Positions 8,783-56,941 of a stretch of 64,000 nt of DNA are shown one piece after another. How positions within the stretch are numbered: position 1 is the stretch's first letter; every line of letters begins with the position of its first letter. Source of the stretch: Octopus sinensis (lineage: Eukaryota); assembly GCF_006345805.1 (NCBI RefSeq), contig NC_043009.1:33108001-33172000 (forward strand), given 5' to 3'. A program made the position numbers and the translations under genes. Under the pieces are notes generated by a model, which worked only from the letters and a program-made list of their open reading frames with translations, had not been told where the DNA came from and ran no database searches.

Positions 8783-8822
8783 AAGAAATTACCGGTTTCG
8801 CGTGTAGCTTTTCAAATTTCTT
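8783..8822 (-). ncRNA. Minimal type I hammerhead ribozyme motif, U3-A8 core variant, in the PLE pseudo-LTR
   Basis: Minus strand reads AAGAAAU UUGAAAA GC UACAC GC GAA ACCGGU A AUUUCUU: 7-bp stem I, 2-bp stem II, palindromic stem III, GUA cleavage triplet. Confidence 0.7.
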
Positions 8823-9036
8823 GTGACGTTATGTTTATATTGCATGGAATTATCGTTGTTTTTATTTCCAGGAGATTTCTAAATAAGGGGAGGTAGTGAG
8901 TGATTTTTTCCGGTGTAGGGGAGATAATCGCTTAAAAATTTTTTTGCCTTTTCCTTGTTAATTTCTCTGTGTCAGTATGTTCGGATGGTTGAGTCTGGGT
9001 GTGTACTTTTCAATGAAGAATGTTTCCTGTTCAGTC

Positions 9037-10238
9037 TCATTTGTGTTGATGATCCGAAGCACATTGGTAAAATGGGAAGATTAAAAATTGTGGCAGTAGT
9101 TGCTTTGCGCATTTCTCAATGTGCTCACTAAAAGGTATCATTCTATATTTGGGAATGCAATCTGTTTCGATGCAGTGTGCATCTGCGCCTGAGTGATAGT
9201 CCCGTGGAACCCACGTAGTCTTGGTGGCAGCCCGAGCATTTAATAACATAAATTATGTTTTCAGAGGCACAAGTAAAGTTAGATTTGATCTTAAATTTCT
9301 GTCCCTCTTTAAAGAAGAATTCTGATCCTTCCAATAGGTTAGGACATGTTGCACAGTTCGATCTACCACATTTTTTTACTTTTGCATCCGTAATTTTAGA
9401 AGACAATTTTGCCTTTGTGAGAATCTTTTTAGTGATTTAGGCTGTTTGTAGCTTTTAATGATTTGGTGTATGTTTAGAATTTCCTTTAATTTTGGGTTTT
9501 TATGAAGTATTGGTAAATTCTGGGTGATGATGGTGAAGGCTTCTTTGTTTCTGGGGTTGTATGTAGATATGTAAGGTAGTATTTTCGGGGAAGGTGTGTT
9601 TGTTGTGGTTGAACTTTTCTTAAAGTTTCTATGTGATTTCTGTTGTGTTGCACGTCTGATCCCATCCTCTATGAGTTGATCTGGGTAATGTCTGTCAATT
9701 AGGGTGTTTTTGAGTTCTTGCAGTCTAAAGTTCCTGGTATTTTGTTCTGACACTATTGTGCATATCCTTCTTGCAAGGTTGAAGGGGATGTTTGTTTTAG
9801 TGTGTCTTGGGTGGCATGAATTAAAAAGAAGGTATTGTTTGGCGTCTGTGGCTTTGTAAAAAATGTCTGTTAATGTCTGTTAATGTCTGTTAATTTTTTT
9901 AATTAGTATATCCAAGAACGGGAGCTCCTTTTGGTTGTATTCCATTGTGAACTGTATATTTGGGTTTATGCTGTTCAATAGGTTTTTAAATTTTAGGAGT
10001 TTATCTATGTTTTCATTCCAGAGAATGAAACAATCGTCTAGGAATCGTTTCCAATTCTCTTTTATGTATTGAGAGAGGGAGTTTCCAAAGATTGATAGAG
10101 ATTCCTGGTAAATGATTATTTCCATGTACCCCATTGTTAAGTTCGCAATGACTGGTGCTGCCCTTGTACCCATAGCAATTCCGGATTTTTGACGGTAAAA
10201 TGTATTGTCAAACATGAAGTGGTTATTGTGTAGGATGA
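9037..10238 (-). pseudogene. PLE reverse transcriptase C-terminal half plus GIY-YIG endonuclease, frameshifted
   Basis: RT motifs QKSGIAMGTRAAPVIANLTMG, WKRFLDDCF and IQFTMEYNQKELPFLDI. Cys-rich linker KCGRSNCATC, then NFTCASENIIYVIKCSGCHQDYVGST (GIY-YIG-like). Split over several frames, including a 10-bp triplication near 9862-9893. Confidence 0.92.
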
Positions 10239-10463
10239 ACGCGAAACCGGTAATTTCTTTAAAAATTTTAAAATTATGTCATTTTAAGGAAAGGGAAAAA
10301 AAATTTTTCCAATATTCTCCAGACATTTTGACACAAATATATATATTTTTTAACATTTAAGCCTTCTGTCTTTTTTCACACTTTACTATTTTCTTAATAT
10401 ATATTATATATATATATATATAATATTATATATAATATATGTATGTATGTATGTATGTATATG

Positions 10464-10495
<32 letters not shown>

Positions 10496-10548
10496 ATATA
10501 TATACATATACACACATATATATATACATATATATGAATGTACATATG

Positions 10549-10599
<51 letters not shown>

Positions 10600-11756
10600 A
10601 CATATGCAGCACAAGTGTATGTGGAGCGTATATGTATCCTTTTGTGTTTTATGAAAATCATGTTAAGAGAAAGACTAATAAAAATTGTATAAATCCATGT
10701 TTAAAGCAATAATATAATGTAATACAATGGTGGATAAGTTGGAATACTGTTGGAAATAAAACAAAACTGTAAATATCAAGTTAAATTCATTCATACGTTA
10801 AATAGCTCTACTCAAGACAGCAGCTCATATTTCTGTTTTGCAACAGTAAATTACGTGTTGTAATGCCTTTATCAGTGGATTCTAAAGAGGAAGACGTGCA
10901 ACTGGAAGATTTATGCTTATGTATAAACGAACGTTTATTTAAAGCGGGAATTAACTGATTCAGCCAAACTTTGCGACAATTTTCTTAGAGTCTTTTTGCT
11001 TTCAAAGCAAGGATCTTCACAGAAAGAATCCTAATAAACAAAGTTAGTATTGAAAAGCAATTTACAATTAAATGGCTAAAGAATCGGCCTCCGGGGCTGG
11101 ATGTTTTGTGCTCAAGTTACTTTTAGGTCCAGAAATGATTCTGTTTCAAAAGTTCGTTTTTCAACCACTTCATCTCTGATGCAGACCAACTCTGCTGTGC
11201 TTTAGACAGATATCTTCAGTTATATACCTGAGCCGACTAATATAAATGCTGTGTTAGTTTAACACTTAAAAAGAATAGAAAGCGTCTTTATGTTTTGGAC
11301 GCAAGCCCTTCATCAGAAAAATTCAAGAATGAAAGGATGTGGCGAAAAAATTAAAAGAATGAGAAAAGATTGTTCGAACATAAAAACTATTAAACGCCAG
11401 GCTGGAATACGATACAGTGAGTGGTGTGTACACGTATGAGAGGGTATCTTTGTATAGAAATTGGCATACGTGGGTGTATATATATGTAGGGTGGTATAAG
11501 GTGCGTGTAGTTTCTTGAAATGTATAGAGGTGTGCAAATATGGGTGTGTAGTGGCGTGGAATAATGTGGGACGTTGATGTATTGGTGAAGTTGTATTTAC
11601 GTGAGAGGAAGAGGACGTGACAGATGTGAGTGTGAAGTGAAAGGGAAGGGGAACGTGGTATGTGTGTGTGTGCGTGTGTATGTGCGTGTGTGTGCGCGTG
11701 TGTGTGTGAGTGTGCGCGTGTGTGTGTGTTTGCGTGTGTATGTATCTACGTTCTTT

Positions 11757-12155
11757 AATTTATTTACTTGTTTCAATCATCAAACTGCGGCCATGCTGGG
11801 ACACCACCCTGAAGAATTTTCGTCGAAAGTATCGACTCAAATTTTAAAGCGTGCTACTTTTGTGTTTGGCCGAACCGCTTAGTTACGGAGACGTAAACAC
11901 ACCACCACCTGTTGTCAAGCAATCATAGAGAACAAATACAGACACAAAGACACACATACATACAAACATACATACACACACATACACACTTAAGACGGGC
12001 TTCTTTCAGTTTCCGTCTACAAATCCACTTACTAGGCTTTGGTTTGCCTGGGGATATAGTAGAAAACATTTGCCCAAGGTGCTACGCAGTGGGACTGAAC
12101 ACAGAACCATGTGGCTGGGAGGCAAACTTCTTAGCACAAAGCCACGCTTGCACCT
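11757..12155 (-). mobile_element. tRNA-derived SINE family B (internal CA/TA microsatellite)
   Basis: Matches the 57839 copy from the TTTACTTGTTTCA tail to the GGGACTGAAC..ACCATGTGG head. Confidence 0.85.
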
Positions 12156-12255
12156 ATGTATTAAACATAGCCTCTTTCCTTTTTGCAAGTACCTTTTGTG
12201 AGTACCGGAATGGTATTTGATATTTCGATTATTTTTTACTTTGACATGTCATCAT

Positions 12256-12629
12256 CGTGGCACTCCGTCGGTTACGACGACACGTGTTCCAGTTGATCCG
12301 ATCAACGGAACAGATTGCTCGTGAAATTAACGTGCAAGTGGCTGAGCACTCCACAGACAACGTAGCTCTCGGGAAGATTCAGCGTGACACAGAGTGTGAC
12401 AAAGCTGACCCCTTTGAAATACAGGTACAACAGAAACAGGAAGAATGACTAAGAGAAAGTTGTGGTGAAAGAGTAGAGCAGGGTTCGCCACCCCACCTCC
12501 TGCCGGATCCTCGTGGAGCTTTAGGCGTTTTTGCTCAGTAAACACTCACAACGCCCGGTTTGGGAATCGAAACCGCGATCCTATGACCGCGAGTCTGCTG
12601 CCCTAACCACTGGGCCATCGTGCTTCCAC
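12256..12629 (-). mobile_element. tRNA-derived SINE family C (possibly octopus OR-type)
   Basis: Minus-strand head TGGCCCAGTGGTTAGGGCAGCAGACTCGCGGTCATAGGATCGCGGTTTCGATTCCC. Closely similar to 21043-21428. Confidence 0.88.
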
Positions 12630-12977
12630 TGACATGTTATATTCAAGAGTGTTTTGGGTATTCTGTTTCTTTTTCTGTTGTTTTAGGAAATTTTGAAACT
12701 TTGACATTTAATGTTTCGTCTTTTCTTAAGTTCAAGAACAAATGATATTTGATTTACTTGTCTTTATTTATTTTTATTTTATTTTTATTTTTATTCTATT
12801 ATTTTTTTTTCATTTTTTTTTTCTTGTATGTTCATTACTGTCTAAATTTATATTAAATTGGTTTGGTGAACAAATGAAATCACACTAATATTTATTATTG
12901 ACTGTTTATTCGTGGGAGGGTGCGGTTTGAGACACATATAGCTTTATTGTTAATGTTGATATAAATATATATATAAT

Positions 12978-13292
12978 GTCCTTGAAGAATTTTTAGTCGA
13001 ATGTATCGACCCCGATACTTATTTTCAAAAGGCTAGTACTTATTCTACAGGTCATTTTTGGCAAATCGCTAAGTTACAGGGACGTAAACACGCCATCACC
13101 GGTTGTCAAGAGTTGTGGTGGGGGAGGTAAGCACACCCACAAAAAACATACACACACATGCAAACTTATATTATTATATATGTTTTGTAATTTAAATTGT
13201 GTGCGAAGTGAAACAATTGTAGGCAATATTAATTAATTAATTAATTAATTTAAATCCATTGAATCTTTCCATTTCAAACTTATTAATAATAT

Positions 13293-13334
<42 letters not shown>

Positions 13335-13485
13335 ACAGGCTTCTTTCAGTTTCCGTCAACCATATCGACTCGCAAGGCCTTGGGCTGCCGGAGGCTATAG
13401 GAGAAGACACTCGCCTAATGTGCCACGCAGTGGGACTGAACCTGGAACTATATAATTGGGAAGCACTCTTCCTACCACACAGCCT
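12978..13485 (-). mobile_element. SINE family B with an internal AT-rich insert
   Basis: Family B 3' and head segments flank a ~130-bp AT-rich stretch that is also present at 14230-14362. Confidence 0.8.
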
Positions 13486-13547
13486 CGTATGTGTATGTTA
13501 TGTATATATTATATATATGTATGTGTGTGCGCGTGTGTGCGTGCGTG

Positions 13548-13842
13548 TAGCGTGTGGCCTAGTGGTTAAGGTGTTGCACTCACGATTGGTAGATCGTGGG
13601 CTGGATTCTCGGATCGATCGGTGCTGTGTGCAGTCAAGTAAAATACTTCATGTCATGTTGCCCTAATCCACTCAACCGTAAAAGGTGACCCTGTCTGTAA
13701 AGAAGTGGCCTTCCGATACGGAGGAATGGTGGCCTGTTTGTCTAACCATTGGAGTGGCATCTTTTGATAACCAAAACTATGCAAAGCGCATTGTGAATAG
13801 CGATGAATAACAACATCCGATCTTGCGGTTGCTCACGTGATC
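13548..13842 (+). mobile_element. Diverged tRNA-derived SINE
   Basis: TGGCCTAGTGGTTAAGG A-box, a degenerate B-box and a non-tRNA body. Confidence 0.6.
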
Positions 13843-15016
13843 ACATGATGTACGTAAGTATGTATATGTATAGAAACAATACGGGAAACAAACGAGAAAA
13901 AGAATCACAATGATTTACAGTTGTATGTATTTTATAAGCGATTCTTCTGCTCCACATTCCATGAACTTTTTTAATCAGAGAACATGTCCATATCATCGGA
14001 TGTTGAGAGTGAGACACACGCAAAACATTTGCTGATTTGAACGTATTCTGCTCCCAGGAAACTTTAGTCGAAAGTATCGACCCCGGTACTTATTTTCAAA
14101 AGACTTGTACATTTTCCATAGGTCCTTTTTGGTGAACCGCTAAGTTAGAGGGACGTAAACACGCCAGCACAGGTTATCAGGCGTTGTGTGTGGGGTGCAG
14201 ACAAGCACAGACACAAAAACATGCACACACATGCAAATTTATATTATTATATATGTTTTGTAATTTAAATTGGGAGCGAAATGAAACAATTGTGGGCAAT
14301 GTTAATTAATTAATTAATTAATTTAAATCCATTGAATCTCTACATTTTCAAGCCTATTATTATACACATATAGACTCGCACAATCGCACACACGTACAAA
14401 CACATACAAACATACACGCCCACATACAAACACACACATACACACACAAACAAACAAATGTTTAAAAGGAGAATTTTTCGCCGAGAAAACATCGCACAGG
14501 CAATGCCATTCATTTCCGAGTGTTCAGGAACCGGTCAAAAATAATATGCACGTTACCACACACACACACACACACGCATGTATATACACTCACACACATA
14601 CACACAGGTAACATATATATATATATGCATATGTGTGTCTGTGCGCGTGAAAGGTGTGTGTGTGTGTGTACGTACGCATGTATGTATAGAGTGCCAAGTT
14701 CAAACAAACGCTATGTCCGGCAATTTAGGATAAATAACTCAAGGATCATGCAGTGAGGTAATAATCATTCTCTCCATAATCTTTAGTGCAACAAAATATA
14801 TTTTGTCGGACTAACGTTTATGGATTAAATGTTTATATAAATAAATAAATAAACGTAAACAGACAGACAGACAGACGGACGACGGACGGACGGATGGATG
14901 GATTGATAGATAGATAGAGAGAGAGAGAGAAATTGAGAGAGAGATACATACATGCATGCATACATACATACATAAATACATAGAGACAGACAGATAGATA
15001 GATAGAAAGATAGATT

Positions 15017-15079
<63 letters not shown>

Positions 15080-15368
15080 GGATGGATGGATGGATGGATG
15101 GATGGATGGATAGTCCTGACATTCCTTATTGTGACATACTCTTACATGCTTCGCATGTTCCTCCTGCTAGTTTAGTATTCTGCGTGATATGTTTGTTTTG
15201 TGCGTTGAAGATGTATGCAACCGCGAAGGTTACTATGTCCATGCTATGATGCTGTTACGTTGCGTGGGAGGAAGACTTTGATTGGCAATTATCTGTGAAA
15301 TTTATATTACAATCTTAATTATAATTAACGTTCACTCCTTCTAAAATGTTTGTATAATAATGAATATG

Positions 15369-15418
<50 letters not shown>

Positions 15419-15741
15419 TATTATTATTATTATTACTATTATTAATACTATTGTTATTTCGTTTCTCGATGAACGTGTAGTCTTCCTGTATTCCATAGAA
15501 TTACATCATACTGTACGTTTTTACGTTGTTTTATAAGATTTAATAATTATGAATTTTAATTATATGGCAGTAGAGATATCGATTACGCATAATATCGGAT
15601 ACATGTATTCGGCAGTTTGTGCGCGTACGTATGTATGCATAGACATATGTATATAAATATATCTGCGTATGCTTATATGCATACATACATGTATACGCGC
15701 ATATGTACATAAATACATGTGTGTGTGTTTGCATGTGTGTG

Positions 15742-15776
<35 letters not shown>

Positions 15777-16269
15777 ATACACATACATATATACACAAAC
15801 ACATACGCACACACATACACACACAGAGAAATTAGTGTCACAAAATACTAGGGACATAAAAGTGTTTTCTTACATCGTTTCGTTTTACCACCACGACTAA
15901 CACCAAGTACCACCATGTTCTCGTTGATCTGACTGAACATAAATGAAGTACAAGAGAAAGAAGTACGGTTGATATAATGACTCAAAAGGACAGGTGCTTG
16001 TTACGGAATGCAAACAGAAGAATGCAGACGCATATATTGATATATATATAGATGTGTGTGTATTTATGAGGATTAAGATGGTTATGTTATGCGACATGGA
16101 GAATACGGATAAAGTATCTGAATATATGAATATACACAGATGTATGAATGTGGAGTAAAGAGGTTTCCTATGCACACGCAGAATTTCTTGTTTCATCACA
16201 TTGGACATACAGCTTCTACTGTAGCCTTAGTTTTACCAATATTCTGTGAACGTAATGAATACATAGGAA

Positions 16270-16780
16270 AGATAGATAGATAACTTTCTTTATTGGCCAC
16301 AAAGGGCTGGACACAGAGGGGACAATTACAAATGTAGAGCTTTTCTTTTCGAAGATGGAAAAGGAAAAAGAAGAAAACAAAAGGAAACAAATGTAAAATT
16401 TCGATCAAAATCGATCGGAAGAAAAAAAAGAGCATCAAAAGGGAACGTGTATCACAGAAAGAAAAAACATTTTTTTTTTCAAAGTAACAAACAAGATTAG
16501 GTTCATCCGTGGAAAGAAAAGCCTACAGAAAAGACCACGATAACCTCAGGCAGGGAGGAAATAAACGCATGAGAGCAAAGTGCTCTCTCTCTCTTTTACG
16601 ACTTACAGGATCATGCTCAAAGTGGTTTCGTCACTCGCACGCACCATCTTTGCTGCATTCACCCACCTTTTTTTGAAACTTTCACGAGACAAAAACCTAC
16701 CTCTCCATTCTCACCTTCCTTTTCAAGTGGTACTTGAAAAAGTTGATGAGCGATTGGCCAGAGAGGTAAGTGTTTGTCTC
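16270..16780 (-). mobile_element. 3' end of an L1/Tx1-like LINE, 5'-truncated
   Basis: Minus strand encodes LSGQSLINFFKYHLKRKVRMER, then after a frameshift LSRESFKKRWVNAAKMVR...L*. A T-rich 3' UTR, AATAAA and a short (TATC)n tail follow. Confidence 0.65.
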
Positions 16781-18247: not shown

Positions 18248-18452
18248 TATATTAAACACACATACGCACACGTGAGACGTTACATAACTATCTAGTTTAT
18301 CACTATGAGAGGCTTCTGCGCAACAATTGCTTCGTATGTGGAAATATTGTACATCATGAATATGAAACGTGAGTTGGTAGCCATGCGCCATTAAGATACT
18401 TTATATAAACCAGATACACAGAAGTATATATATGCATGCATACACACACACA

Positions 18453-18507
<55 letters not shown>

Positions 18508-18790
18508 CATGTATATATCGTGTATACATATGTATTTTGTCCAACTTTAATTATATTTATACTTCCTTACATTTTGCTTATGTTTGGACATATATGTATA
18601 TATATACGTATATATATATAATATATATTATATATATATATATATATCGTCATAAACCTTCTTTTGGCGATTCACCATAAATATATTGCACAAAAATATC
18701 ATGACTTACATATCAGAAATTAATTATTTAATCAGATATACTCACGACACTCTCAAAAGAGACAATGAGTAAGTCTCATCTAAACAATAT

Positions 18791-18838
<48 letters not shown>

Positions 18839-22754: not shown

Positions 22755-23583
22755 CGCTTGCGCCGGTTCGCGCACGCATACGCGCCGCTTGCACCTCGCT
22801 CTTGGACCCGACGAGACCTCCCGCCCGTCCTGGGACCGTCGCGTGTCGTTGGGTTTTCCCACGCCGTCTCGCGGGACCATCTTCCATCTTCCCCTCAGCT
22901 GGAGGTCCTTTTCCTTAACCCCCCCCCCTTTTTCGTTACACACACGCGCACACATATACACACATTGCCTATATATATAACATTACTCTACACACTTCAA
23001 TCTACTCGCCATTAATACCACCACGACACTGGACACACACACACACTACTACTCAACACACCTGGCACGCTACATCCCGCCCACCCCTTCCCCTCCCTCC
23101 CTTCCTCCTTCCTTCTTTTTCTTACTACTGACCTTGTCTGCTAGCTGACCACTAGTCTCGCCCTACCTCACACGCCTACACACAGACGCCACACTAACAC
23201 ACACATATATTTTTTTTTTTTTTCATTTCGCCTCACACACCACATACACACACGCACACGCACACACTCCAACATATACACACATCTGTTGCGTTACCAA
23301 CCTGTCTCCACTCTTTTGCCTTTAAAAACCCACTTTGCTCTTGTATCGTCAACGTCCGCCTTTCACCATGTTGCAACTCGTAAACACCAGTCGTCTTTTT
23401 TCTCTTTCCCTGTTGCCCGCTCTGGGATCTTTCTTCCTCTCTCTTCTTCTTTATGTTTCCGACGAAGAGCTCCGCTCGAAACGTCATACCTCCCTGCTTC
23501 CATTTCCTGAGCGCCTATTAATAATAATACTGTAATTGTTCCTGTTGTTGTTGTTTTTTTTGTTTCCCGTTTGGATTAAAATT
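22755..23583 (+). mobile_element. Probable PLE 3' end / pseudo-LTR next to the assembly gap
   Basis: Pyrimidine-rich UTR-like tract containing the HHR motif at 23455-23489 and ending in (TA)n. The 5' part abuts the gap and has no clear coding motif. Confidence 0.45.
23455..23489 (+). ncRNA. Degenerate minimal type I hammerhead motif (U4C) in a probable PLE 3' end
   Basis: GUUU CCGACGA A GAGC UCC GCUC GAA ACGU C AUAC: palindromic ACGU stem III, GUC triplet, one core change and one stem I mismatch. Confidence 0.6.
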
Positions 23584-24006: not shown

Positions 24007-24447
24007 TATTAGAGACAAAACCACTATTTTGCAAAACAAACAAGGAAAGACTTAATCAATACATAAAATTTTAATAAATAGTCAAAAAAACCGCCACTAC
24101 AATCGTTTCTTGTCTTGATCGACAATCTTCAGGTGGACTTCCAATAATTCAGTTACAAATTATGAATAATTATTACAGTATTATTACAGTATTATTATTA
24201 CAAATTATTACTTCATAATTTGTAACTGAATTATTGGAAGTCCACCTGAAGATTGTCGATCAAGACAAGAACGATTGTAGTGGCGGTTTTTTTTGACTAT
24301 TTATTAAAATTTTATGTATTGATAAGTCTTTCCTTGTTTGTTTTGCAAAATAGTGGTTTTGTCTCTTATAATATTATAATATTTTACTATAAAATTGGAT
24401 TTAATCCTAAATCTGATTTTTTCTGTAAATTTGGATTTATTCCCAAT

Positions 24448-26189: not shown

Positions 26190-26381
26190 AATAAGTGTCA
26201 GTGAACAGGTCGCGGATTTTAGCGACGAAAATATTTTGACAAATTAAACTTATATGTTGAAGTGAATCGAACGGCTTTTGTGTGTTTCTTAAATGGCTTA
26301 TAAACACCTTCCACGCTGCAATTGTTTTCGTTTCAGCACAGGATCTCAGATCAAATTACTTGCTATGCGAGTACATCTCCG

Positions 26382-26384
<3 letters not shown>
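26190..26384 (+). mobile_element. Solo PLE pseudo-LTR-like insert between (TA)n tracts
   Basis: About 195 bp of complex sequence starting at the G3-C8 HHR motif and bounded by TA microsatellites. Confidence 0.6.
26196..26241 (+). ncRNA. Minimal type I hammerhead ribozyme motif, G3-C8 core variant
   Basis: UGUCA GUGAACA G GUCGC GGAUUUUA GCGAC GAA AAUAUU U UGACA: 5-bp stem I, 5-bp stem II, palindromic AAUAUU stem III. Confidence 0.72.
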
Positions 26385-26599: not shown

Positions 26600-27030
26600 A
26601 ATAATTTCTTAAGTAACGAAAAGTTGAATTTGATATTAATCTTTATTTTGTACAATGGTCGTTTCGACCCATCCTGCTTACTGTTCCTTATGGGTGGGAT
26701 CCTGTTCAACATGTGTTGCATCCATTTTGCAGCCTGCTTCTCATCAGGTACATAAAGGTTTGGGTTTCATTAAAGATCCTGAGTTTTGGCTGGCATGTAT
26801 AGAGACGGGCAAATAACAACATGCCAGCCAAAACTCAGGATCTTTAATGAGACCCAAACCTTTATGTATGGATGTACTTGATGAGAACCAGGCTGCAAAC
26901 TGGACATAACACAACATGTTGAACTGGGTCCCACCCATAAGGGACAATAAGCAGGATAGGTTGAAATGACTATTGTACAAAATAAAGATTAATACCAAAT
27001 CCATCTTCTGGTAACTTAACAAAATATTAT
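26600..27030. mobile_element. Diverged fold-back hairpin (probable PLE pseudo-LTR) with a split hammerhead-like motif
   Basis: About 200-bp inverted arms (26600-26798 / 26819-27030). The left arm on the minus strand reads UGUAC CUGAUGA-[75 nt]-GAAACGACCAUU GUACA. Confidence 0.75.
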
Positions 27031-27277: not shown

Positions 27278-28290
27278 CTAGGTCTGATCAATAAGTATCC
27301 GGATTGGTGTTATAAAAACAAAACTACAGCACGTACCAATTTGGCAATTTATCTCCTTCAAAGTCGTCCGCTTCGGAAGTCACACACTTAATCCAGCGTT
27401 GTTTCCGTTGATGGCAGTATTCCTGGAATTCGTTTTCTGAGATATTCAGCAGCTGCCTTGTCGCATTCAATTTTATTTCCTCGACGTCCTGAACTCTTCT
27501 TTCTCTCAAGCAGGATTTGATTTTTGGAAAGAGGAAAAAGCTAGTTAGTGGCGAGATCTGGGGACTGCGGATGCTGTCGAGCCTGGGGAATGCTGTGCCT
27601 ATCCAAAAACTGCTGCTGAATGGGCAGGTGCGTTGTCATTGTGCAACTGCTACTCACCGGGCGCATGCAATTGCGGCCTTTTGCAACCAATAGCATCCTG
27701 CAATCGCCGCAATACGTCACGGTAGCACTCCTTGTTTGCAGGCTGACCAGGTAGAGCTTACTCATGATGAACAATCCTCTTGTAATCGACACGTTCAACA
27801 GTGGCTTCATATTGCTTCGACTCATTTGCGTTTTCTTCGGTCTCGGAGAGGTTGGGGTCTTCCACTGCGAAGAGTGAGCCTTTGTTCCGGGATCATACCC
27901 ACGATTCATCACCCGTTATGACCGTTTCGAAAACGTTTTCATCGTTTTCGACACAATCAAGAAGATCTTGTGCAACTGAAACCCGAGTGTTTATTTTGTC
28001 AGGTGAAAGCAGTTTTGGCACAAATTTGGCAGACACACCTCTTGACATCTTCAGTAATAATGGACTGAACTGAACCGTAACTAATCTGCACATCTTCTGA
28101 TAACTCACGGAGGGGATTCGACAATATTCCCTCATAGCTTCACGCACATCTACGGTGTTTTTCTCAGTTCTGCTGGTTGCGGGTCACCCAGAACTTTCGT
28201 CAATATCAACATTTTGTAGGCCATCTTGAAAATGTCTGAACTACTCGTACACTTGTGTGCGTCTCATACACTATTCTCAATAGACATGCA
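27278..28290 (-). mobile_element. mariner (DD34D) relic with one TIR retained
   Basis: TA-CTAGGTCTGATCAATAAGT terminus. Peptides AKFVPKLLS, VITGDESWV, GYDPGTKAHSSQW and HPQSPDLA lie across frameshifts. Confidence 0.9.
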
Positions 28291-35499: not shown

Positions 35500-36750
35500 T
35501 TAGATTGTTTCGAAAATAATGGCCGCTCTAAGTGTTGAGTTTTGAAACGCAATTTTGTCTTAGTATTTTAATTATATTTTAGGTGGATTTCGACATACTT
35601 AATAATTGATGTATGCTCTTCAATAATTTTTTAATTATTTCAGGTAGAAAACATTCTTGAAGCATAGGCGCCCTTAATTATGAAAATGACAAAAAAAATG
35701 ACCTTCGCTTCCTTTTCTTGCGTGAGTTCAAGCTTGGGCACAATACCTCCCAAACTGCTGCCAATATCAACAGAGTATGAGGAGAGGGATTCACTAGTGA
35801 TCGCACAGTACGAAGGTGGCTTCAGAAATTCCGTAGTGATGATGAGAGCCTTGAAGATGAAGAAGTTAGAGAACAGACATGCAGTCTTGAAAATGAACAG
35901 TTGAAAGCAATTGTTGGACAAAACCTACGCCAAAGTGTCAGAGAAATGTCTCATGCACTTGGTGTCGGTATTGCAGAAGAGTGGTAAGGTGAATAAGCTT
36001 GATAAATGGGTACCGCATGAGCTCAATGAAAATCAAAATGTTCGGCATATGCTCGATATTCTTACTGGGAAACACCAATGCTCCTTTTCTTGACCGAATA
36101 GTCACTTGTGATGAAAAGTGGATCCTTTATGATAACCATAAATTATCAGGTCAATGGCTTGATTGTGATGAGTGTCCCAAACATTTCCCAAAGCGAAAGT
36201 TGCTTCAGCAAAAGATTATGGTGACTGTCTGGTGGTCTGCAATTGGTATTGTCCATTACAGGTTTCTTGAAGCCAATCAGAGCATTACAGCAGAGGTTTA
36301 CTACAATCAATTCGCTGGAATGCATAATCACTTGCAAAAAATAAGACCTGCTTTGGTGAATCGGCGTGGCCCAATTTTTCTCAACGATAATGCAAGCCAC
36401 ATGTTGCATGAATGACGCTACAGAAACTCAGACTAGGGATACGAGACTTTATCTCATCCTCAATATTCTCCTGATCTTTCACCTACTGACTACCATTTTT
36501 TTAAAGCATTTAAACACGTTTTAAGTGATAAAACGTTCTGGTCCAAACCAAGGTGGAATCAGCTTTCAAAAATTTCTTAGCATCAAAACCAATAAGTTTT
36601 TATCAACGAGGAATAAATAATCTCGTTGATTGATGGCAGAGATGCAAAGATATTCACGGCTCATACTTTGACTAATCAAAATATTTCTATTGCCAATTTT
36701 ACCAGAATAAAATTATGTTTCTGAAATCGCCTATTATTTTCGGAAAGGTG
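35500..36750 (+). mobile_element. Near full-length defective mariner (DD34D, cecropia/Hsmar1-like)
   Basis: About 1.25 kb with peptides FKLGHNTSQTAANIN, WVPHELNENQ, IVTCDEKWILYDN, FLNDNA and YSPDLSPTDYHFF. Imperfect TIR remnants CGAAAATAAT / ATTATTTTCG. Confidence 0.92.
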
Positions 36751-40845: not shown

Positions 40846-41052
40846 ATTTATTATATAGAAGGAGCTTCCCACAGACTAGAACTGTTTCATTCAAGAGAAA
40901 TCTTCAGGAAGCTCATGCTTCCTGAAGATTTCTCTTGAATGAAACAGTTCTAGTCCTGTAGAAGCTCCTTCTATATAATAAATTAATTTTACTCTACTAT
41001 GTATTGAGTACCTTATTTACTGTGGTTAACCCCGAATCAACCCGGGACCTAC
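40846..41052 (+). mobile_element. PLE-derived fold-back pseudo-LTR hairpin in (TA)n
   Basis: About 67-bp arms (40846-40912 / 40917-40983) around a 4-nt loop TCAT, a one-sided tail to about 41052, and TA repeats on both sides. Confidence 0.85.
40917..40965 (+). ncRNA. Type I hammerhead ribozyme, canonical core with 4-bp stem III
   Basis: GCUUC CUGAAGA UUUCUCUUGAAU GAA ACAG UUCUAGUC CUGU A GAAGC. Stem II is weak (U.U then 3 bp). Confidence 0.75.
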
Positions 41053-47365: not shown

Positions 47366-49759
47366 TTTTTCACAGGTTTCTTTGATGTCTCTTAATGCGA
47401 AATTGGTTGGTGCTATCGTTAACGTCTGCATTGAATCAATGTCGAATACACCGATATAAAGACAATATATGTGTATTTATCTAACGCTTTCCTTCCAGGA
47501 TATTTCTGTATGTATATGCATTTGTCTCTCTCTGTGTATGCATGTATGGTATGGATGGATGGATGGATGGATAGCTATGCATGTATGTGTGGTGCGATTG
47601 TGTTTATACATGTAAGAATTTGCGTGCATGTGGATCGATTATCTGTGGGTGTGTGTATGAATCAATGTATGTATGTGTATATGAATGTGTGTTTGTGTGT
47701 ATAAGTGTGTGTGTACATATTCTCTGTGCCTATGTAGGGATAGAGAAATTAATGACCAGTTAAGCTTAAACTTCCACTGAACTATTTATGACTGTTGTTT
47801 CTTCCATCATCCTTAACATTTCACTGGGAAACGACGCTAGCCTCTTAAAATTTAACTCTCCCCATCCAACCATGGCCATCCCTTTTATGGTTTTAGACAA
47901 AATATATCCCAGGTCATATCACAGCAAAGGCTGTTATATTCTGAGACGGTAAGGTGTGATTTCAAGTACAAGTTGGGTGATCGTCAAGGGATTCCCTCGC
48001 TGTCTCGCGAATAAATATAATTTGCCCTTAGATGCAATGAAACTCTTGCAGCGGAATTGAATTCACGTACTGTGAGTTAGTAATTCAATACTGTATCCAG
48101 TCGTCCGGTTGCCACAAATCACCAAACTCTAAGATACACATTAAAAGTGAACTCTAATCTTGTGTGTAGAGAATGTCACTTGCAGACAAGGTTGGGTGGT
48201 TATTGGGTGCTGAACCCGAAATTTACAGATATTTCCAGTTTTATCAGATAAATGTAAGGGAGGAAGGGGACAGATGATATGAACAGGGCGGGGAGATGAT
48301 TGATTCTTGCAGCAATACAGCAACAGATCAATGGATTAATGAAATGATCGATAGAAACACAGGAACAGTTTTTTTTTTAAATTATTGATATACATTTGGA
48401 AATTGTATGGAAGCACGAAAACGATAAGATTTTCTCTTAAAATGAAAACTAGTTTAATTCTTCAAAAAATTGGAATTGATTTAGAAGTGGGTACATTTTA
48501 ATCCGACAATTGACCTTCATAATCCTACAAAATGTGGGATTATGATATTTGTACTTCTATGAAAACTCGTGAAATACAAGAAAGGAAGAATTCAAACTGT
48601 CAATCGAAACTGGCCCTGTGGGTCACGGAGATTATGATATCCTACTCGGTTTCTGCACAAAATACAACGAAAAAATCCTTAGGCTGTTGGTTAACCTACT
48701 AGAAATAACAGGTAGCCAACCAAATCTCCTTCTAATCACATCTTGCTCTCCTAAAAAAAAAAAGATCAGGAGAGATAATTCTTTATCCTTCAGTCAAGAA
48801 AAGATACACTGTTCGTGGCCATTTTCAAAGATTTTAGAGCATCCAAGACACGAAAAGAGAGGGGGCAAAAGATACCCACCTCTGGTATCTGGCGTGGCAT
48901 TGTTTTTTTGTTCGTGTATATATTTCTGTATGTAGGTTGCTTTTTTGCTGATATACAAAAAATTTCATGGTGTGTTGTTGTTTTGGGTTCACCCTATCCT
49001 CGTTGATTCTGTAAATTCGGGTTATGGCCACCAGGTCGTAACAAATCCGAGTGTTTACAACATATTGGGCTCTGCCGAAGACGCAAAAAGGGCTATCTTG
49101 TGATTATGTGATATTGTATACCACATTAAATGATGTAGTTCTAGATGAACTATGTCAAAAAATGAATACGATAACACCAAGTCCATGATATCGGTGATGA
49201 ATTAGGTTAGCTAACAACATCAATGTTTTAAAGACATTGGTAAGCAAGAAAGAGTAAGTATATTTAGCAATGGTGACCCGGTTTCAAGGCATTTATAGTG
49301 CTATGTAACTTTCTGTATATGACCGGTACCCTTCTGTCGTCATCTACAACCGTCAACCAAGTCTTGGAGTCCAGGTATTTTATTCAATAATTCTCCTCCA
49401 TCACCTTTAGCTCTTTCATTCTTACATTTTTAACCCTGTTGTTGTTCCATGTTGATATTCATTCAGCTTTTTCTAGGTCTTCACCTTGACATTTTACCAA
49501 AGTATTTTCCATAAATTTTGCCGACAGTATACTTCGATCAAAGTATACTTCGATAGTCAAAGTACCATTTTCTGGTCCTAGAATTCTAATTTGGTCCAAC
49601 ACAAACAGCTTGGTCTTTTTTTATTTTGTCCAACTAATTATTAGTGTTCTTATACAATATGAATAATACATTTGTGTCCTCGTGTGTGTGAGCATATATG
49701 TATGTAGTGTGTCGTTATATAGGTATGTATAAGTGTATATATATATATATATATACAGG

Positions 49760-49814
<55 letters not shown>

Positions 49815-49815
49815 A

Positions 49816-49878
<63 letters not shown>

Positions 49879-49949
49879 CACTCTGTGTCGGACGCCGGAA
49901 TGATATTTGATCACTTTATGAAGCGTTTGGGTGTCAGTTTGATGCCTGG

Positions 49950-50140
49950 AATAGGATAGCTTACCTCAGGGGTAGGTAGAAGATCTTTAACCTTGGTTGG
50001 TAATCTACCTAGGAGATGGAAATTTCCAAAATAAACCTGAAGCCTTGGAAGTTCCTGGTTTTGTCAATTTTCACACCGGCGAAAGTATTCTTGGACCAAT
50101 AAGTAGGGGTAGTGCAGTGTAAGCTACACCCACTAAAAAT
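49950..50140 (+). mobile_element. Possible RTE-clade LINE 5' UTR remnant
   Basis: ACCTTGGTTGGTAATCTACCTAGGAGATGGAAA..TAAACC resembles RTE/RTEX 5' UTR segments from memory. No ORF. Confidence 0.35.
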
Positions 50141-50393
50141 TATTCATTTACTCGGGTACTTCTTGTACACCAAATCTTAGTAAATATTTATATAGATAGA
50201 TAGATAAATACATACATACATATATACATACATACGTGTGCGTATATATATATGTATAGGTGTTAGTATGTCTTTATATATACTTCAGTGTATATATTTA
50301 TACGTATATGTTTATGTATGCACATATCTATATTCGTAATTGTGGGTGACAGTGAGAACGTTCTTATAAAGCAATGCGTAAATGTAGGGGCGG

Positions 50394-50845
50394 ATAACAT
50401 AGGAAAGCCACAAACACAACTTTAATCCCCTGAGGAGAATCATTAATCTTGTGAACAGGGAATTAAGTAAAATTAGTAAATTTATTTTAAGCTCCATTAA
50501 TTTAAAAGCCATGCAAACTACTGGTTTACCTTTATAGAACAATAGCATTTCACTGATCAAGTGGTTTAATAGCCGAGTGGATAAACATAATTGTAAATTC
50601 ACTGAATATGATATAGTGAAGTTTTATCCTTCTGTTAGAAAACTCTGCTTTTAAAGCTTTAATGTTCGCTAGTTCATTCACTGACATTTAATGATATCAG
50701 TATTAAAGTTATAATGAATGCTCAAAAGTTATGCCGTTTTCATTACGAATTATTTCCGTTTAAGCACACTGGTGACTGAGTTTTCTGGTATGGCAAAGTG
50801 TAGCTACGATGGAGCAGAATTTTGTGAGACAGTAGGAATTCATCA
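50394..50845 (+). pseudogene. Degraded PLE reverse transcriptase, Naiad/Chlamys-like
   Basis: Manual translation through stops and frameshifts gives IT*ESHKHNF, RIINLVNRELSKISKFILSSIN, LIKWF, EYDIVKFYPSV, KALMFA and SYDGAEFCETVG. These match ITLKDHKENF, FDIxxFYPSI and MGSxDGAExCELVG. Confidence 0.8.
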
Positions 50846-51237
50846 GAAATTAGACTAACATTACAACAGATTTTTTTAAATTCGAATTAAGTGTGCATAG
50901 ATTCAGGGAAGGGAAATATTTTAACAAGAAGGGTAAATGAAAAACAAACTTCAAAATACATATTCAGAGTTTGTTGTAAAAAGCGAGTGAGTGTCGAGCG
51001 TCATTTGTTTAAGGATAAATGGAAAGTGACAAGACTATTGCATCACAGTCCAATTCATCAGGTATATCAGTGACTTTGTTGAATAGTATGTATATAAGTA
51101 CACATATATATACATATAAATATGTTCATATACATATATATATGCATATATATATATACATATACATATATATATAAATATATATATGTATACATATAGA
51201 TATAAATATATATATGTGTGTATATATATATATATAT

Positions 51238-51440
51238 ATAGGGCAATCAGTTAGTTGTCATAACAATACTCAGAGTTTCAGATTTTCAGATACCGAAGCT
51301 CCGGTATCTGAAACTCTGAGTATTGTTATAACAACTAACTGATTGTCCTATATTATATATTTACAGATATTTTCCTCTATTTACATAATATCGAGGTCTC
51401 ATTCATCTTTTGTTGTCATATTATTATTATCATTAATATA
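51238..51440 (+). mobile_element. PLE-derived fold-back hairpin truncated inside a probable hammerhead
   Basis: Arms 51238-51295 / 51302-51352 with an 8-bp duplication in the left arm. The right arm has GAAACTCTGAGTA (HHR 3' half). One-sided tail and (TA)n flanks. Confidence 0.75.
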
Positions 51441-51715
51441 TGTATATATATATATATACAACAATTATAGGAAGCTTACCAAACCATTCATTCTATCATT
51501 TTCAACATTAATTACATACGTTGAGTATCTTTCATCAAACTTTGGTACTCAACTTGCTCGGACACCTTTAATTATAAATGAAATAATGGTTTATTGAAGT
51601 TTGAATAACTGTGACAAATATAGAAAATAGCTCTATATTCATTTTATTGAATGCACCTCACTTTGATATATGAAGCTTGCTTGGCCACTTCATGTGTGTG
51701 TGTGTGTGTGTGTGT

Positions 51716-51786
<71 letters not shown>

Positions 51787-52604
51787 TGTATATGTAAGTG
51801 TGTGCATGTGAGTGTGCGTTCTGTCTGGAACCGAAGATTATCCAAGTTTTTATCACTTTGATTCCTTTTTTTACTCGCACTAAGCCAGAAAACTGTAAAG
51901 GAAGACAATGTCTCAGCTATTTCCAACGTAGTTTGTGTCTGTTTCAAGAATTTAACGCAACATCCACATTCCTTTATTCTGAAACAACTGCAAGCCGCAA
52001 TACAAATTATCTCTCATCAACTGACGGTCATTAGCGAGTTCTCCAAAACTGATTAACTAATCACTCTTTGACATGTCTTATTCCCAGTGGCCTTTGCTGT
52101 TCGGTGTTGTTTACCTTATAACTATTTTATCGAGGATTAGCCGGTTTAGATGTTGTAGTTGTGATATGGTTGTAATTAAATAAATACTCTATTACTGATG
52201 AAATGGATTTCTATTAATTAATTAATGACTGATATGTTGCTGTAATTTTAGATTCTCTCCCAGCAACAAAATCAATAACATTCGGCATGTCAGGGAATAT
52301 ATTTTACAAATATCAATCCGTTCCCGAGACGTTTTTACTATCCCTTATAGCGTCTCCCCACTTCTCGCCGTTCTGTGTCATGTGATCAGACCTAAATGGA
52401 AACAAATATTGGATCAGGTTATCTGAGACGCCATATTAAATTTGATCGTCTTAGTTATAATTTACTAATGAACAGACAGTCATGTTTGTTTTGCTATTTT
52501 TCTTCATTCTTCATTCGATTCGATAACAAATACAAATATTTAAACAAAGGTTCCACGGGAATATTTGATGCAAGGCCTTCCAGCTGTTTCGATGCAAGGA
52601 TCTT

Positions 52605-52653
<49 letters not shown>

Positions 52654-52948
52654 TGTGTGTGTGTGTCCGTATGTGTACGCGTAGCAAATATCCTACGGAT
52701 TCACTGGTTTATATATATATATATATATATATATAAATATAACAGAAAAAGGTAACATTACTTAAGGTTTCGTAGACATAGGACACATTCACCTTGCCAA
52801 ATTTGGAGACATGTTTCTTCCGTTTGTACACTCACTCGTGTATGTATGTATGTATGTATGTATGTATGTATGTATGTATGTATGTATGTATGTATGTATG
52901 TATGAATGTATGTATGTATGAATGTATGCATGTATGTATGTATGTATG

Positions 52949-52980
<32 letters not shown>

Positions 52981-53019
52981 GTTAACGCATACATACATAT
53001 ATATATATATACATATACA

Positions 53020-53160
53020 TACGACGGTCTTCTTACAGCTTGCGTCTCCCAAATCCACTCACATGTTTTTGATCGACCTAAGGCTATAGTAAAAGACACT
53101 TTCCCAAGGTGCCATGCAGCGGGACTGATCCCAAACCCATGTAGTTGGGAAGCAAGCTTC
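53020..53160 (-). mobile_element. Family B SINE head fragment
   Basis: CCAAATCCACTCAC...CCCAAGGTGCCATGCAGCGGGACTGA. Other family B scraps lie at about 130-310, 4138-4180, 14055-14230 and 31380-31530. Confidence 0.75.
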
Positions 53161-53919
53161 TATATAAGCATATATGTGTATATGTGTCTGTGTGTCCTGT
53201 ATGTATGCCTGCACGTATGTGTGTTTGTACATGTATGTGAATGCTTAAGTCTAATTTACAATTTATAAATTTGAAAGATATGTGTATTAAACGTGAATGT
53301 AGGAATAAGATTGGTTTTGTGTTGCTGTTTGTGTTTAGACACAAAACAAGCCTGATTCGCGAGATCAGGGTTGATGCAAAGGCAATCCATTATTGACCGC
53401 TCACTACTTTGTTTCCAATTAGTCCTCATTAGGACTTTGCTTTCATCCTTTCGGAGTCGATAAAATAAGTACCAGTTCAGCTCTGGAGTCGATGGAATCG
53501 ACTTAACCCCTCGCCCCCGAAACTGCTAATTCTGTGCCGATATTTGAGACCAATATTTTAAATCAGGTTTTAAAACACGAACTGCACACTTACTGATTGT
53601 ACAACTGAAAATTAAGAATACAGTAAAATGTATTGTAAAATTGGTTTTGATTCGGGCCTCGAGCATTCACTGACGGTTCATTAAACCAGTCATGGAAAAT
53701 TTTGTTTCTGAGCTTATAGAGGGAAAAAGATGGAACGGTTCATTATTAGAAAAGGGTGCTGAGTTCGAAAGAGCATTTTTTTAGCGCTGGTTGAATAAAA
53801 CTGTCATGTGGGACACGAAGTCCCAGTTCAAAAAAAAAGTTTATAATAAATGTGTGAATGTGTATGAGTGTGTGTGTGTGTGTGTTTTTGTGTGATTTTG
53901 TATTAACGTCGTATCTAAA

Positions 53920-54240
53920 ACAGAACAGAGCAACTCTTGAACATGACTAACAAGAAATTTTCAAAACTAAGAACAGACAAGCAACCTAAAGGAATACAAG
54001 AAACGAAACACTAAACATCAATGAAAATATACACACTGGATAAATTGGGAAATAGAAAAGGTCGTAAAATAAACCTTTGGTTCCATCATAGTGGGGGCAC
54101 TTTACACCATTTCCACAGCAGCCTATTGGAAAGATCTCTTACTTTGAAGAACCTTTGTATTTCATCTCGATCTCTCTTCAGAATAAAAAGCTGCTAAAGG
54201 CAAAGTAGATACGTCATAGCAAAAACAATTATTTGATTTT
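53920..54240 (+). pseudogene. Possible very degraded Naiad-type GIY-YIG C-terminus
   Basis: Scattered peptides INWEIEK, FEEPLYFI, QNKK and IRHSKN occur in the order expected for IxWxI..LxEKLxI..LNKR..CRH. Confidence 0.35.
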
Positions 54241-54675
54241 ACGATGAAAAGAATGTAAGACGTGTGTATGTCTTCATTTAGACATTTCTATAGACGTGGA
54301 GTGGGGTGGAGTGGAAACAAGTGCTACAGAGAAACAAAGAAACACAGGCACAAACATACATATATATATGTGTGTGTGTATGTATACACAGATATGTGTG
54401 TATACACACATATGTGTGCATACATGTATACATATACGCACATGCATACGTATATACATGCATATATATATATATATATGCATGTATATACGTATGCATG
54501 TGTGTATATGTATATGCATATATATACAAATAAACAGAGAGATACGCACGGTTTGATGTAAACTATATACACACGTAGACACACATACAAACAGAATTTT
54601 CAAACGAAATTTTTAAAAGACACTTCTATTATATATATATATAAATATATGTATGTATGTTTGTATACATATATT

Positions 54676-54735
<60 letters not shown>

Positions 54736-54826
54736 GTATAAGTATATATATATGTATATACATATATATATTATACATACATACATATATATATACCTCA
54801 TTCAGAATACATCAGTGTCTTTGTTT

Positions 54827-54902
<76 letters not shown>

Positions 54903-55129
54903 GAGGAGGAGGAGTTGTCAATGTCGAGCTGTTACATAGAGAGATGAGCATTGTTTCTTGTGTCCAACCCTGCTTGGAGGAGAAAAGAGCTTTACGTTTT
55001 GAAACAATTTTTGAACTCCAGACAAATTTCATACATATTGTATAGCCATGGTGTCCAATAAGATGGCGATAAGAAGAATATATAGAATCTTTCATCTTAA
55101 AAAAATAAATTAAAAATTGGTAATAAAAT

Positions 55130-55951
55130 CCTTATTCTTTTCACAATTTTATTGAAATAAATGATACATATTCTTTATTACATGGGACAATGATAGTAAA
55201 TCTTCATATGTCAACGTAAGTACCGGTGGCATCAACCAGTTTCCTGAAACGGCAATTGATCGAATGAACAACCTTCTGAACGATGTCATCTGGAATATCA
55301 TTGAGAACCTCCTGAATCCGTGACGCCAAGTCCTCAAGTGTGCGAAGTTTTTTCTTGTACACCTCCTCTTTTGTGTAGCCCCACAGGTAAAAATCACCTG
55401 GAGTGAGATCTGGACTTCTTGGAAGCTAACATTAGCTCTCCATATTCCATTCTGCGGCCACAGTCTTCAGCTTTTAGCTCCTGCACGTAATGGGGTTTCC
55501 ACGGACGAAAATTCTCTTCTTTATCCAACACCATATGTTTTGTGTGTCTTGTTAGTCCACTTTCACGAGCTGCTTGACGTGTTGATTTTTTCGGGCTGCG
55601 ATTAAATACTTCCTGCACTGTTACCACGTTCTCCGCTGATCGGGATGGGGTTGGGCTGCCAATTCTTCTTCCATCGTTCACAGAGCCCGCTGTCATCAGC
55701 TTTGCATGACAACTTTTTATTGTCTCCGGACGTAGTTTTGCATGTTTATACCTTTCCATGCACGCCACCATCTCTGAACCAAAAAAATGGAATTCCACAC
55801 GTCATAGCGTTCTGCCATCTTAGCTCGACAATAAGAATATAAGAAATCCGCATTTGTGTTGCCTGTTTAAAAAATGTTTTCGTCATGACTTCAGTGATAC
55901 TGAAAATTCTATCAGCAATTTCTGATGCCTTGTTACTTTCCACTCACCCTG
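55130..55951 (-). mobile_element. Internally deleted Tc1/mariner (maT/DD37D-like), related to the 17.5-kb copy
   Basis: ORF 55394-55798 (IKSCHAKLMTAGSV, SPKKSTRQAARE, KPHYVQEL) is followed by PRSPDLTPGDFYLWGYTKEEVY. The right terminus is CACCCTG-TA; the left terminus is not identifiable. Confidence 0.88.
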
Positions 55952-56703
55952 TACGAAAAAATATGATTGTTGTACGATGTTTCTCAAAAGCCGACATTTG
56001 CTCAATGCCACAGAGAAATAACGCAAAACAATATTTTAACAACGCTTTGTTAGCGTGATGAGCGAAAAAGACTCAGTGGACGTACAGAGGCTAAATGAAG
56101 GAAACATGAGAACATTATGTCACTAGAGACTGTGCATTCTAAAATGGGCATCGAGAGATGCAGTCTAGCTTGATAAAAAAGAGGTACTTTCTATGTGCCA
56201 GCAAAGGAGGAATTACAAGAACTGTAGGTGATGTTTGGAACGGACGATTTATTTTCCAGCGACTGAAGTAGGTCGCATGAAAATATTGCCTGGTCTTTAA
56301 GACTAAGAATTAATTATTGATTTGTGCCGCACACACATGGGCAATAAATGAGGAGGCGAAAAAGTCACTGTGAAAGACATGTGTCGTAGCGTTGGCCTTC
56401 GGTTCGTCCACACCTTTGCAGTACATTACGGAAAGGTGGTGAAGCACGGCGAGGTTAATTTGGCATCCATCGACCCCGTGAGGAGGTGGGGATGATGAAA
56501 TGAGGTTCCAGTCAAATACTGAGTCCATATGATCGACTGACCTTTTCCCGTCGAGATTGTTGACCTTCAATCAAAATTAGCAGCATTCCTTATCATATAT
56601 CACCTCTAAGCATTCAACACCGGATTCCTGTTGTATTAACACATTCACAAGGAGATATAGATCTAACTGTATATAGAAAGATAGATAGATAGATAGATAA
56701 ATT

Positions 56704-56777
<74 letters not shown>

Positions 56778-56785
56778 GAAAGAGA

Positions 56786-56820
<35 letters not shown>

Positions 56821-56904
56821 GTGTTTGGGGAGAGTCATTCTGTTTTAATGCCTTATTAATTAACACACTCACTGGTTCGATTTCCATTCATTTGTCTATT
56901 TTTT

Positions 56905-56941
56905 CTAAAATTTTCATTGCTTCTTGCAATCTCTTCAATAG
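56905..56941 (-). ncRNA. Hammerhead-like motif, U3.G8 core, in an insert between (TA)n tracts
   Basis: Minus strand reads CUA UUGAAGA G AUUGC AAGAA GCAAU GAA AAUU U UAG. Stem I is only 3 bp because the insert ends just upstream. Confidence 0.5.

Follow-up and report, generated by a model that had tools for sequence, protein, structure and literature searches.

Background

The active hammerhead ribozyme (HHR) fold includes a pair between core positions 3 and 8, as Martick and Scott reportedly found in 2006, and small HHR variants associated with Penelope-like elements (PLEs), with a diminished palindromic stem III, are said to have been found to cleave as dimers by Lunse, Weinberg and Breaker in 2017. 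We consider here a 64,000-nucleotide stretch of the microsatellite-rich, 2.72-Gb genome of Octopus sinensis (NC_043009.1, positions 33,108,001 to 33,172,000, forward strand; hereafter the window), which contains type I HHR motifs of six repeat families, two of them fixed for U3-A8 and G3-C8, respectively, in place of C3-G8. The G3-C8 pair, fixed in one young family, is apparently undescribed in nature; should the motif cut, it would count as a new natural variant of the ribozyme.

Natural covariation from C3-G8 to U3-A8, and the existence of the 3-8 pair, were reported by Perreault et al. in 2011 (PMC3088659), and U3-A8 was described in 2014 in HHRs of Schistosoma PLEs, together with a descriptor giving about 1,300 matches, an extra nucleotide after A9 and motif pairs on opposite strands (PMC4209133); U-A is an accepted natural variant. 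By our count, the 56 motifs in Fig. S3 of PMC4209133 comprise 53 C-G, 2 U-A, 1 U.G (Saccoglossus kowalevskii 1) and no G-C, and both U3-A8 and a U.G example in PLE HHRs have been in print since that year. G3-C8 is not named in the accessible part of PMC3088659, and literature searched by text yielded only engineered versions and no natural G3-C8 family, the largest survey (Lunse 2017), Hammann 2012 and variants shown only in figures lying outside that comparison. The same literature contained no report of cephalopod PLE hammerheads, and the accessible parts of 10.64898/2026.07.22.740005 (bioRxiv), PMC6155905 and PMC11014351 added nothing on the 3-8 pair. PLE hammerheads cut slowly in vitro (PMC4209133); in vitro insertion does not require them (PMC11167929), and one proposal treats them as parasites of PLEs (PMC8557442). 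The HHR of the Anolis PLE PAc cut only with protein, and an engineered C3G/G8C change partly rescued its cleavage (PMC11167929).

Fixation of the core pair within repeat families

Families are named here after the position of their copy in the window, and core counts refer to distinct copies of a de-duplicated set; first-look candidates across the six families numbered 1167, 312, 617, 414, 629 and 2629, with 40 scored per family. The core UUGAAAA was found in 37 of 39 copies of the 8783 family, the remaining two being truncated within the motif, and GUGAACA in 81 of 90 copies of the 26196 family, where the 83 intact cores were 81 G-C, one U-C and one A-G (a weak 73% match). U3-A8 and G3-C8 are therefore states fixed in their families and not decay of individual copies. 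Loop II differs among subfamilies of the 26196 family, and stem I carries either U.G or U-A, while the G3-C8 core is constant. In contigs from four of four runs, bearing four organism labels, neither 26201 (G3) nor 26206 (C8) has a listed variant, whereas 16 sites at or beyond 26226 vary, with coverage thinnest at the 5' end. A C in stem I of locus L135 seemed compensatory and turned out to be specific to that copy.

The canonical pair predominates in three families, with CUGAAGA in 43 of 45 copies of the 24094 family, C-G in 58 of 62 copies of the 40917 family, and 14 C-G, 2 U.G and 2 other cores among the 18 intact ones (of 29) in the old 26649 family. The 56905 family is mixed, its 43 intact cores (of 53) comprising 23 U.G, 16 U-A, 2 C-A, 1 A-G and 1 C-G. 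Copies anchored on the window had suggested U.G as its fixed state, which was overturned by 20 mapped copies anchored on the endonuclease (EN), with 9 U-A, 5 U.G, 1 C-G, 1 C-A and 4 broken cores. U.G is thus a subfamily state in a U-A family, one substitution away from U-A, and is not compensatory. Likeness is higher among G8 copies (0.83) than among A8 copies (0.77), the G8 set having been picked by likeness to the window, and on a tree of the family's pseudo-long terminal repeats (pLTRs) the G8 copies do not form one clade (9 changes against a shuffled mean of 14), so that the direction from U-A to U.G is not established. A preliminary description of the window, made from its sequence, had proposed that families fixed compensatory cores including, possibly, U.G, a proposal that stands for U3-A8 and G3-C8 and fails for U.G. 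It had also named copy-specific decay of CUGAnGA as what would speak against it; the family counts exclude such decay for 8783 and 26196, but it does account for the U3 at 26873.

Linkage to Penelope-like coding sequence

The 8783 HHR sits 3' of reverse transcriptase (RT) and GIY-YIG remnants at 8961-10239, and locus L251 of its family has an uninterrupted 706-aa frame (RVT_1, E 2e-7) with a long-spacer linker of the Neptune type. The 26196 HHR lies about 1 kb 3' of a separate RT/GIY-YIG frame, and its association was examined blind to the core in 20 loci of the family chosen by endonuclease DNA: 19 of them had GUGAACA in sense about 1 kb further downstream, one of the 19 being the seed locus and the single miss ending at a contig end. 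This family retains an open frame of 1042 codons (L284:1552-4677, - strand). A Pfam search of the L284 frame gave no RT match, RVT_1 missing it; some relatives of its protein, of which there are at least 150 in public assemblies, carry RVT_1 or GIY-YIG domains, and for one element's protein the nearest relative with a name, among the matches listed, is labelled Octopus vulgaris (58% identity). The 26196-family EN fits the short-spacer Nematis pattern printed in the supplement of PMC8557442, the 8783 spacer being longer; the Nematis-type and Neptune-type labels reflect comparison of linker and EN motifs by eye, not a tree with reference elements. The 56905 family has decayed RT/EN pieces with 43-49% identity to the 26196-family protein, and a pLTR within 1.5 kb in 23 of 30 EN-anchored loci.

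The preliminary description had spoken of several PLE families, and PLE coding sequence identifies three of the six as such (8783, 26196 and 56905), no open reading frame (ORF) being linked to the three C-G families in the loci searched. The latter are likely PLEs as well, an assignment resting on their inverted partners, tails and (TA)n ends. Hallmarks of EN+ PLEs are present, namely 5' truncation, an inverted partner, a variable 3' tail and microsatellite targets, and the further suggestion that these are minimal type I HHRs of the pLTR type is borne out. RT sequence beside a G-C copy in L033 and L241, and a Neptune-type frame near a G-C copy in L201, belong to other elements, and two direct 24094 copies in L256 have no coding remnant between them. 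In the 26196-family RT (L284:1552-4677, - strand; L278:3-1964, + strand), motifs 3 and 4 stand 130 residues apart, compared with 61 in the 8783 RT, yet the endonuclease of this family is C-terminal.

Covariation across families and clade relatives

The genome was sampled at round coordinates in 100 stretches, each of 10 kb (1.0 Mb in all), with a strict descriptor that left positions 3 and 8 free, tightened after a looser one had been run, and with 20 shuffles for comparison. The 21 matches included 9 C-G (shuffled mean 0.0), 4 U-A (0.2), 2 G-C (0.1; both from the 26196 family), 1 U.G (0.05), no A-U, and 5 unpaired cores (1.35 summed). The expectation of the preliminary description that searches for CUGAnGA miss a large share was upheld by 7 of the 16 paired-core matches; extrapolation to the genome, good to an order of magnitude only, gives ~4 x 10^4 motifs, about 40% of them non-CUGAnGA. 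Ribozyme descriptors should therefore leave positions 3 and 8 free.

Clustering of strict matches, without de-duplication of copies, gave 29 groups, from which 10 singletons and one group with no majority state were dropped and to which the 26649 family was added, leaving 19 families. Positions 3 and 8 form a Watson-Crick pair in 17 of the 19 (13 C-G, 3 U-A, 1 G-C; permutation mean 10.5, p about 1e-4), the other two being the U.G family and a group reading A-A, which is unlikely to be a hammerhead; the dropped singletons comprised 4 Watson-Crick, 1 U.G and 5 unpaired cores. Applied to 41 metagenome loci of the 26196-family clade, the descriptor matched 4 motifs immediately 3' of the EN, along with 2 sites that are likely chance, and reading 20 3' flanks of clade relatives by eye added 5 motifs. 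These relatives represent 5 C-G and 4 U-A lineages and no G-C lineage, and in some of them other core positions have changed as well. A protein tree of 16 rows joins the G-C family to the U-A/U.G family as its sister (99/99); along it the 3-8 state changes 7 times, with clustering no greater than in shuffles. MAFFT did not bring the divergent HHRs into register. Motifs with a long stem II might correspond to the 'half cores' of Naiads; four motifs from C-G families were absent from the Naiad supplement (PMC8557442).

Departures elsewhere in the core also occur 3' of related endonucleases, with C at position 9 in L331:2493-2545, AAAA for GAAA in L339:5645-5680, and, in the 3' flank of L359, stem I arms of 7 bp that enclose a strongly changed core. 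The clade relative at L332:4969-5020 combines a C-G core and the palindromic stem III UAGCUA with a flipped U15.1-A16.1. C3-G8 families with stem II inserts of 40-75 nt, an intact stem I and a palindromic stem III were seen in L165, L191, L198, L190, L028, L243 and window 26649-26753, and descriptors limiting stem II length would score such motifs as half cores.

Rfam reports no hammerhead in the window at or above the gathering threshold, and none among the best 150 of 422 matches, which are mostly microsatellite-driven miRNA matches; RF00163 has 7 matches over its cut-off across the genome, none in the window. Single-motif scans of 26196 and of the canonical 24094 gave no hammerhead family at E <= 10, and since 24094 was missed as well, the miss is not particular to variant cores.

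Motifs of the window

The type I HHR descriptor gave four matches in the window: 8783-8822 (- strand, U3-A8), 24094-24136 (- strand, C3-G8), 26196-26241 (+ strand, G3-C8) and 56905-56941 (- strand, U3.G8). A relaxed form added 40917 and 26873, and the remaining partners came from repeat comparison. The features are as follows.

8783..8822, - strand: minimal type I HHR, U3-A8; N3 at 8815, stem I of 7 bp, stem II of 2 bp, palindromic stem III ACCGGU, A17 at 8790
8961..10239, - strand: PLE ORF of Neptune type, 5'-truncated and frameshifted; RT motifs, thumb, CX4CxxC linker and GIY-YIG, with the 8783 HHR in its 3' pLTR
10239..10402, + strand: inverted, 5'-truncated partner of the 8783 element, beginning inside the HHR (10239-10258 is the 3' half only)
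24094..24136, - strand: canonical C3-G8 minimal HHR, CUGAAGA; near-palindromic stem III, within a pLTR-like repeat of ~165 bp ending at (TA)n
24242..24283, + strand: inverted partner of 24094, with GAAA short of one A
26196..26241, + strand: minimal type I HHR, G3-C8, GUGAACA; G3 at 26201, C8 at 26206, extra G after A9, stem II of 5 bp, palindromic stem III AAUAUU, U17 at 26236, stem I of 5 bp here and 7 bp in longer copies
26196..26383, + strand: solo 3' pLTR of the Nematis-type PLE family, flanked by microsatellites
26649..26753, - strand: decayed copy of the old C3-G8 HHR family; CUGAUGA at 26747-26741, stem II insert of ~75 nt, stem II broken
26873..26979, + strand: inverted partner of 26649, UUGAUGA, the U3 being copy-level decay
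40864..40912, - strand: inverted partner of 40917, with mismatched stem III
40917..40965, + strand: C3-G8 HHR, CUGAAGA; monomer stem III of 4 bp, U.U at 10.1/11.1
56905..56941, - strand: minimal HHR-like motif with a U3.G8 wobble, UUGAAGA; extra G, stem III AAUU, U17, stem I of 3 bp, a copy of an old PLE family

The six heptamers named in the preliminary description were all confirmed in type I HHR folds, and its count of about ten motifs was matched, although the ten are not independent: they represent six repeat families, with four motifs being inverted partners of others and several decayed. U4-G5-A6, A9, G12-A13-A14 and A15.1-U16.1 around three helices are present in the 8783, 24094, 26196, 40917 and 56905 families. 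A Watson-Crick 3-8 pair is found in 8783 (U-A), in 26196 (G-C) and in the 24094, 40917 and 26649 families (C-G), with the 56905 copy having the U.G wobble. UUGAAAA, GUGAACA and UUGAAGA (8783, 26196 and 56905) depart from the literal C3-U-G-A-N-G8-A consensus; CUGAAGA and CUGAUGA, also listed in the preliminary description, are both canonical. Relaxed-descriptor matches at 1774 and 49999 were long and unnatural-looking and were treated as chance.

Copies of the HHR families are solo or in inverted pairs, in contrast to the head-to-tail tandems of retrozymes, and no non-LTR retrozyme array (head-to-tail units, each with a type I HHR and no coding sequence) was present in the window among the best 150 of 169 repeat rows. 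The centre of inverted pairs in the 40917 (window 40846-41050) and 26196 families often lies a few to 40 bases from the start of stem I, with one arm tailed and the other untailed. In the G-C family (L201:9039-9075, - strand; L243; L047), many short copies begin near the branch-point/acceptor-like stretch that precedes stem I, which recalls Drosophila Penelope, where an intron ends at helix I. The window also holds a mariner-type transposase remnant at 35993-36415 (Transposase_1, E 4.5e-23), frames at 27541-28183 and 55394-55801 that look transposase-like by eye and have no Pfam match, and, at 22755-23342, an unclassified repeat with 91% identity to L243:1-595 that covers part of a 100-base N gap region.

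Proposed mechanism and alternative explanations

The motifs are probably pLTR hammerheads of PLE-type families that undergo slow, dimer- or protein-assisted self-cleavage under weak selection. In tandem transcripts, two HHRs may dimerize by way of their palindromic stems III, or folding may be aided by the protein of the element (by extension from PMC4209133 and PMC6765202), and a cut after position 17 would trim the element RNA and so process such transcripts. Weak selection that maintains this cleavage would let lineages swap the core pair among C-G, U-A and G-C, with the G-C and U-A cores presumably slower than C-G, and the U.G subfamily would be a one-step relaxation, able to spread since cleavage is not strictly needed for insertion. 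The pair belongs to the active fold, so its replacement by compensating pairs in different lineages points to selection on catalysis. Dimer predictions with ViennaRNA, whose models leave out tertiary contacts and protein, make the double hammerhead the predicted minimum for 24094 only (-21.4 kcal/mol), and place that of 8783 within 1.4 kcal/mol of its minimum (-14.1 against -15.5).

A number of observations weigh against this interpretation. Minimum-energy folds pair N3 with N17 in both 8783 (U3-A17) and 26196 (G3.U17), two monomers of 26196 (-25.6) are favored over its double hammerhead (-23.6), and the U.G copy of the window at 56905 barely forms one (-1.4 against -8.0). The non-Watson-Crick U.G state has amplified to more than half of the intact cores of its family (23 of 43). 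G-C is seen in one family and represents one event, and the permutation p is optimistic, since the families are related and relatedness was ignored. Among 89 loci searched for the 24094, 26649 and 40917 families, none held a coding remnant linked to the motif, sequence further upstream being outside the search. In PMC11167929, insertion in vitro was not impaired by mutating the HHR, and RNA-seq showed no ends at the cut site.

The four paired-core matches of the window are not significant as a count (shuffled mean 1.3, 60 shuffles, maximum 6); the motifs are judged real because each belongs to a genome-wide repeat family with a conserved fold, not because of that number. With the looser descriptor on 80 of the same stretches, C-G exceeded shuffles (9 against 0.4) and U-A (4 against 3.3) and G-C (2 against 1.2) did not. 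These two results would suit chance matches or copy-specific decay of CUGAnGA, and decay does describe 26873 and, in part, 26649; as a general account it is very improbable, being refuted for 8783 and 26196 by cores common to nearly all copies, and facing the position of the motifs 3' of an endonuclease, as in known PLEs. The main alternative, though an unlikely one, is that the variant motifs are hammerhead relics, with G3-C8 lacking a useful cutting rate and the fold kept for protein binding, as a signal for reverse transcription or splicing, or by simple inheritance from one master copy. The predicted 3-17 traps and weak dimers, the spread of U.G, the decayed cores of L331 and L339 and the insertion and RNA-seq results cited above are what relics would lead one to expect, and Naiads thrive without canonical HHRs (PMC8557442). 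The passage from U-A or C-G to G-C, however, takes two changes that end on a Watson-Crick pair, no credible family is fixed for a mismatched state, and engineered C3G/G8C is partly active (PMC11167929). It is also improbable, if less so than chance, that the fixation of G3-C8 reflects an overlapping requirement of some reading frame or splice signal that runs through the pLTR, the Watson-Crick character of the pair being coincidental. A PLE ORF of Anolis does start within its HHR (PMC11167929), the G-C family has a branch-point/acceptor-like stretch ~16 nt upstream of stem I, and a frame of ~70 codons with one stop crosses the motif in L201; but this frame contains stops in the inspected copies, no full-length copy showed an ORF beginning in the pLTR, and pairing in 19 families is not something that a coding constraint would predict.

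Weakly selected, assisted self-cleavage is the interpretation we favor. A stronger version, that a young, coding-intact PLE family carries a naturally fixed and catalytically active G3-C8 hammerhead, the first such described, which together with clade-wide C-G/U-A swaps would reveal selection on cleavage, and that ~40% of tens of thousands of PLE hammerheads in this genome escape CUGAnGA searches, is put forward tentatively, and we would sooner bet against it than for it. If natural G3-C8 is active, cleavage as such would be under selection in PLEs. The G-C family and its U-A/U.G sister together form a ready natural series for comparing cleavage; the surprise is limited, as the general point and U-A have been in print since 2014.

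Comparison with known systems

The small PLE-associated variants that Lunse, Weinberg and Breaker reportedly described in 2017 resemble the present motifs in their diminished palindromic stem III and PLE context.

A close likeness is to the motifs of PMC4209133, with which those of the window share the pLTR location, an extra nucleotide between 9 and 10.1, a palindromic stem III, U3-A8 families, frequent U17, and opposite-strand pairs 100-700 bp apart. Those motifs include no cephalopod example, and G3-C8 is found in none of the 56. As the extra nucleotide, the Nematis-type clade of this genome has G where their consensus has H, and several families here have stem II inserts of 40-75 nt. The C3G/G8C constructs of PMC11167929 and PMC3884650 have the same swapped pair as 26196, but are laboratory mutants and not a natural fixed family. 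In PMC3884650, G3-C8 works better with G17 than with C17, whereas the 26196 family has U17, and the predicted N3-N17 pairing of 8783 and 26196 resembles the inactive C3-G17 form discussed there. At the level of the whole element, the resemblance is to the Neptune and Nematis EN+ PLEs (Craig et al. 2021, PMC8557442), with a C-terminal GIY-YIG domain, a CX2-5CxxC linker, (TA)n targets, 5' truncation, an inverted partner and a tail; the RT insertion between motifs 3 and 4, tied in that work to clades with an N-terminal EN, occurs in the 26196 family together with a C-terminal one.

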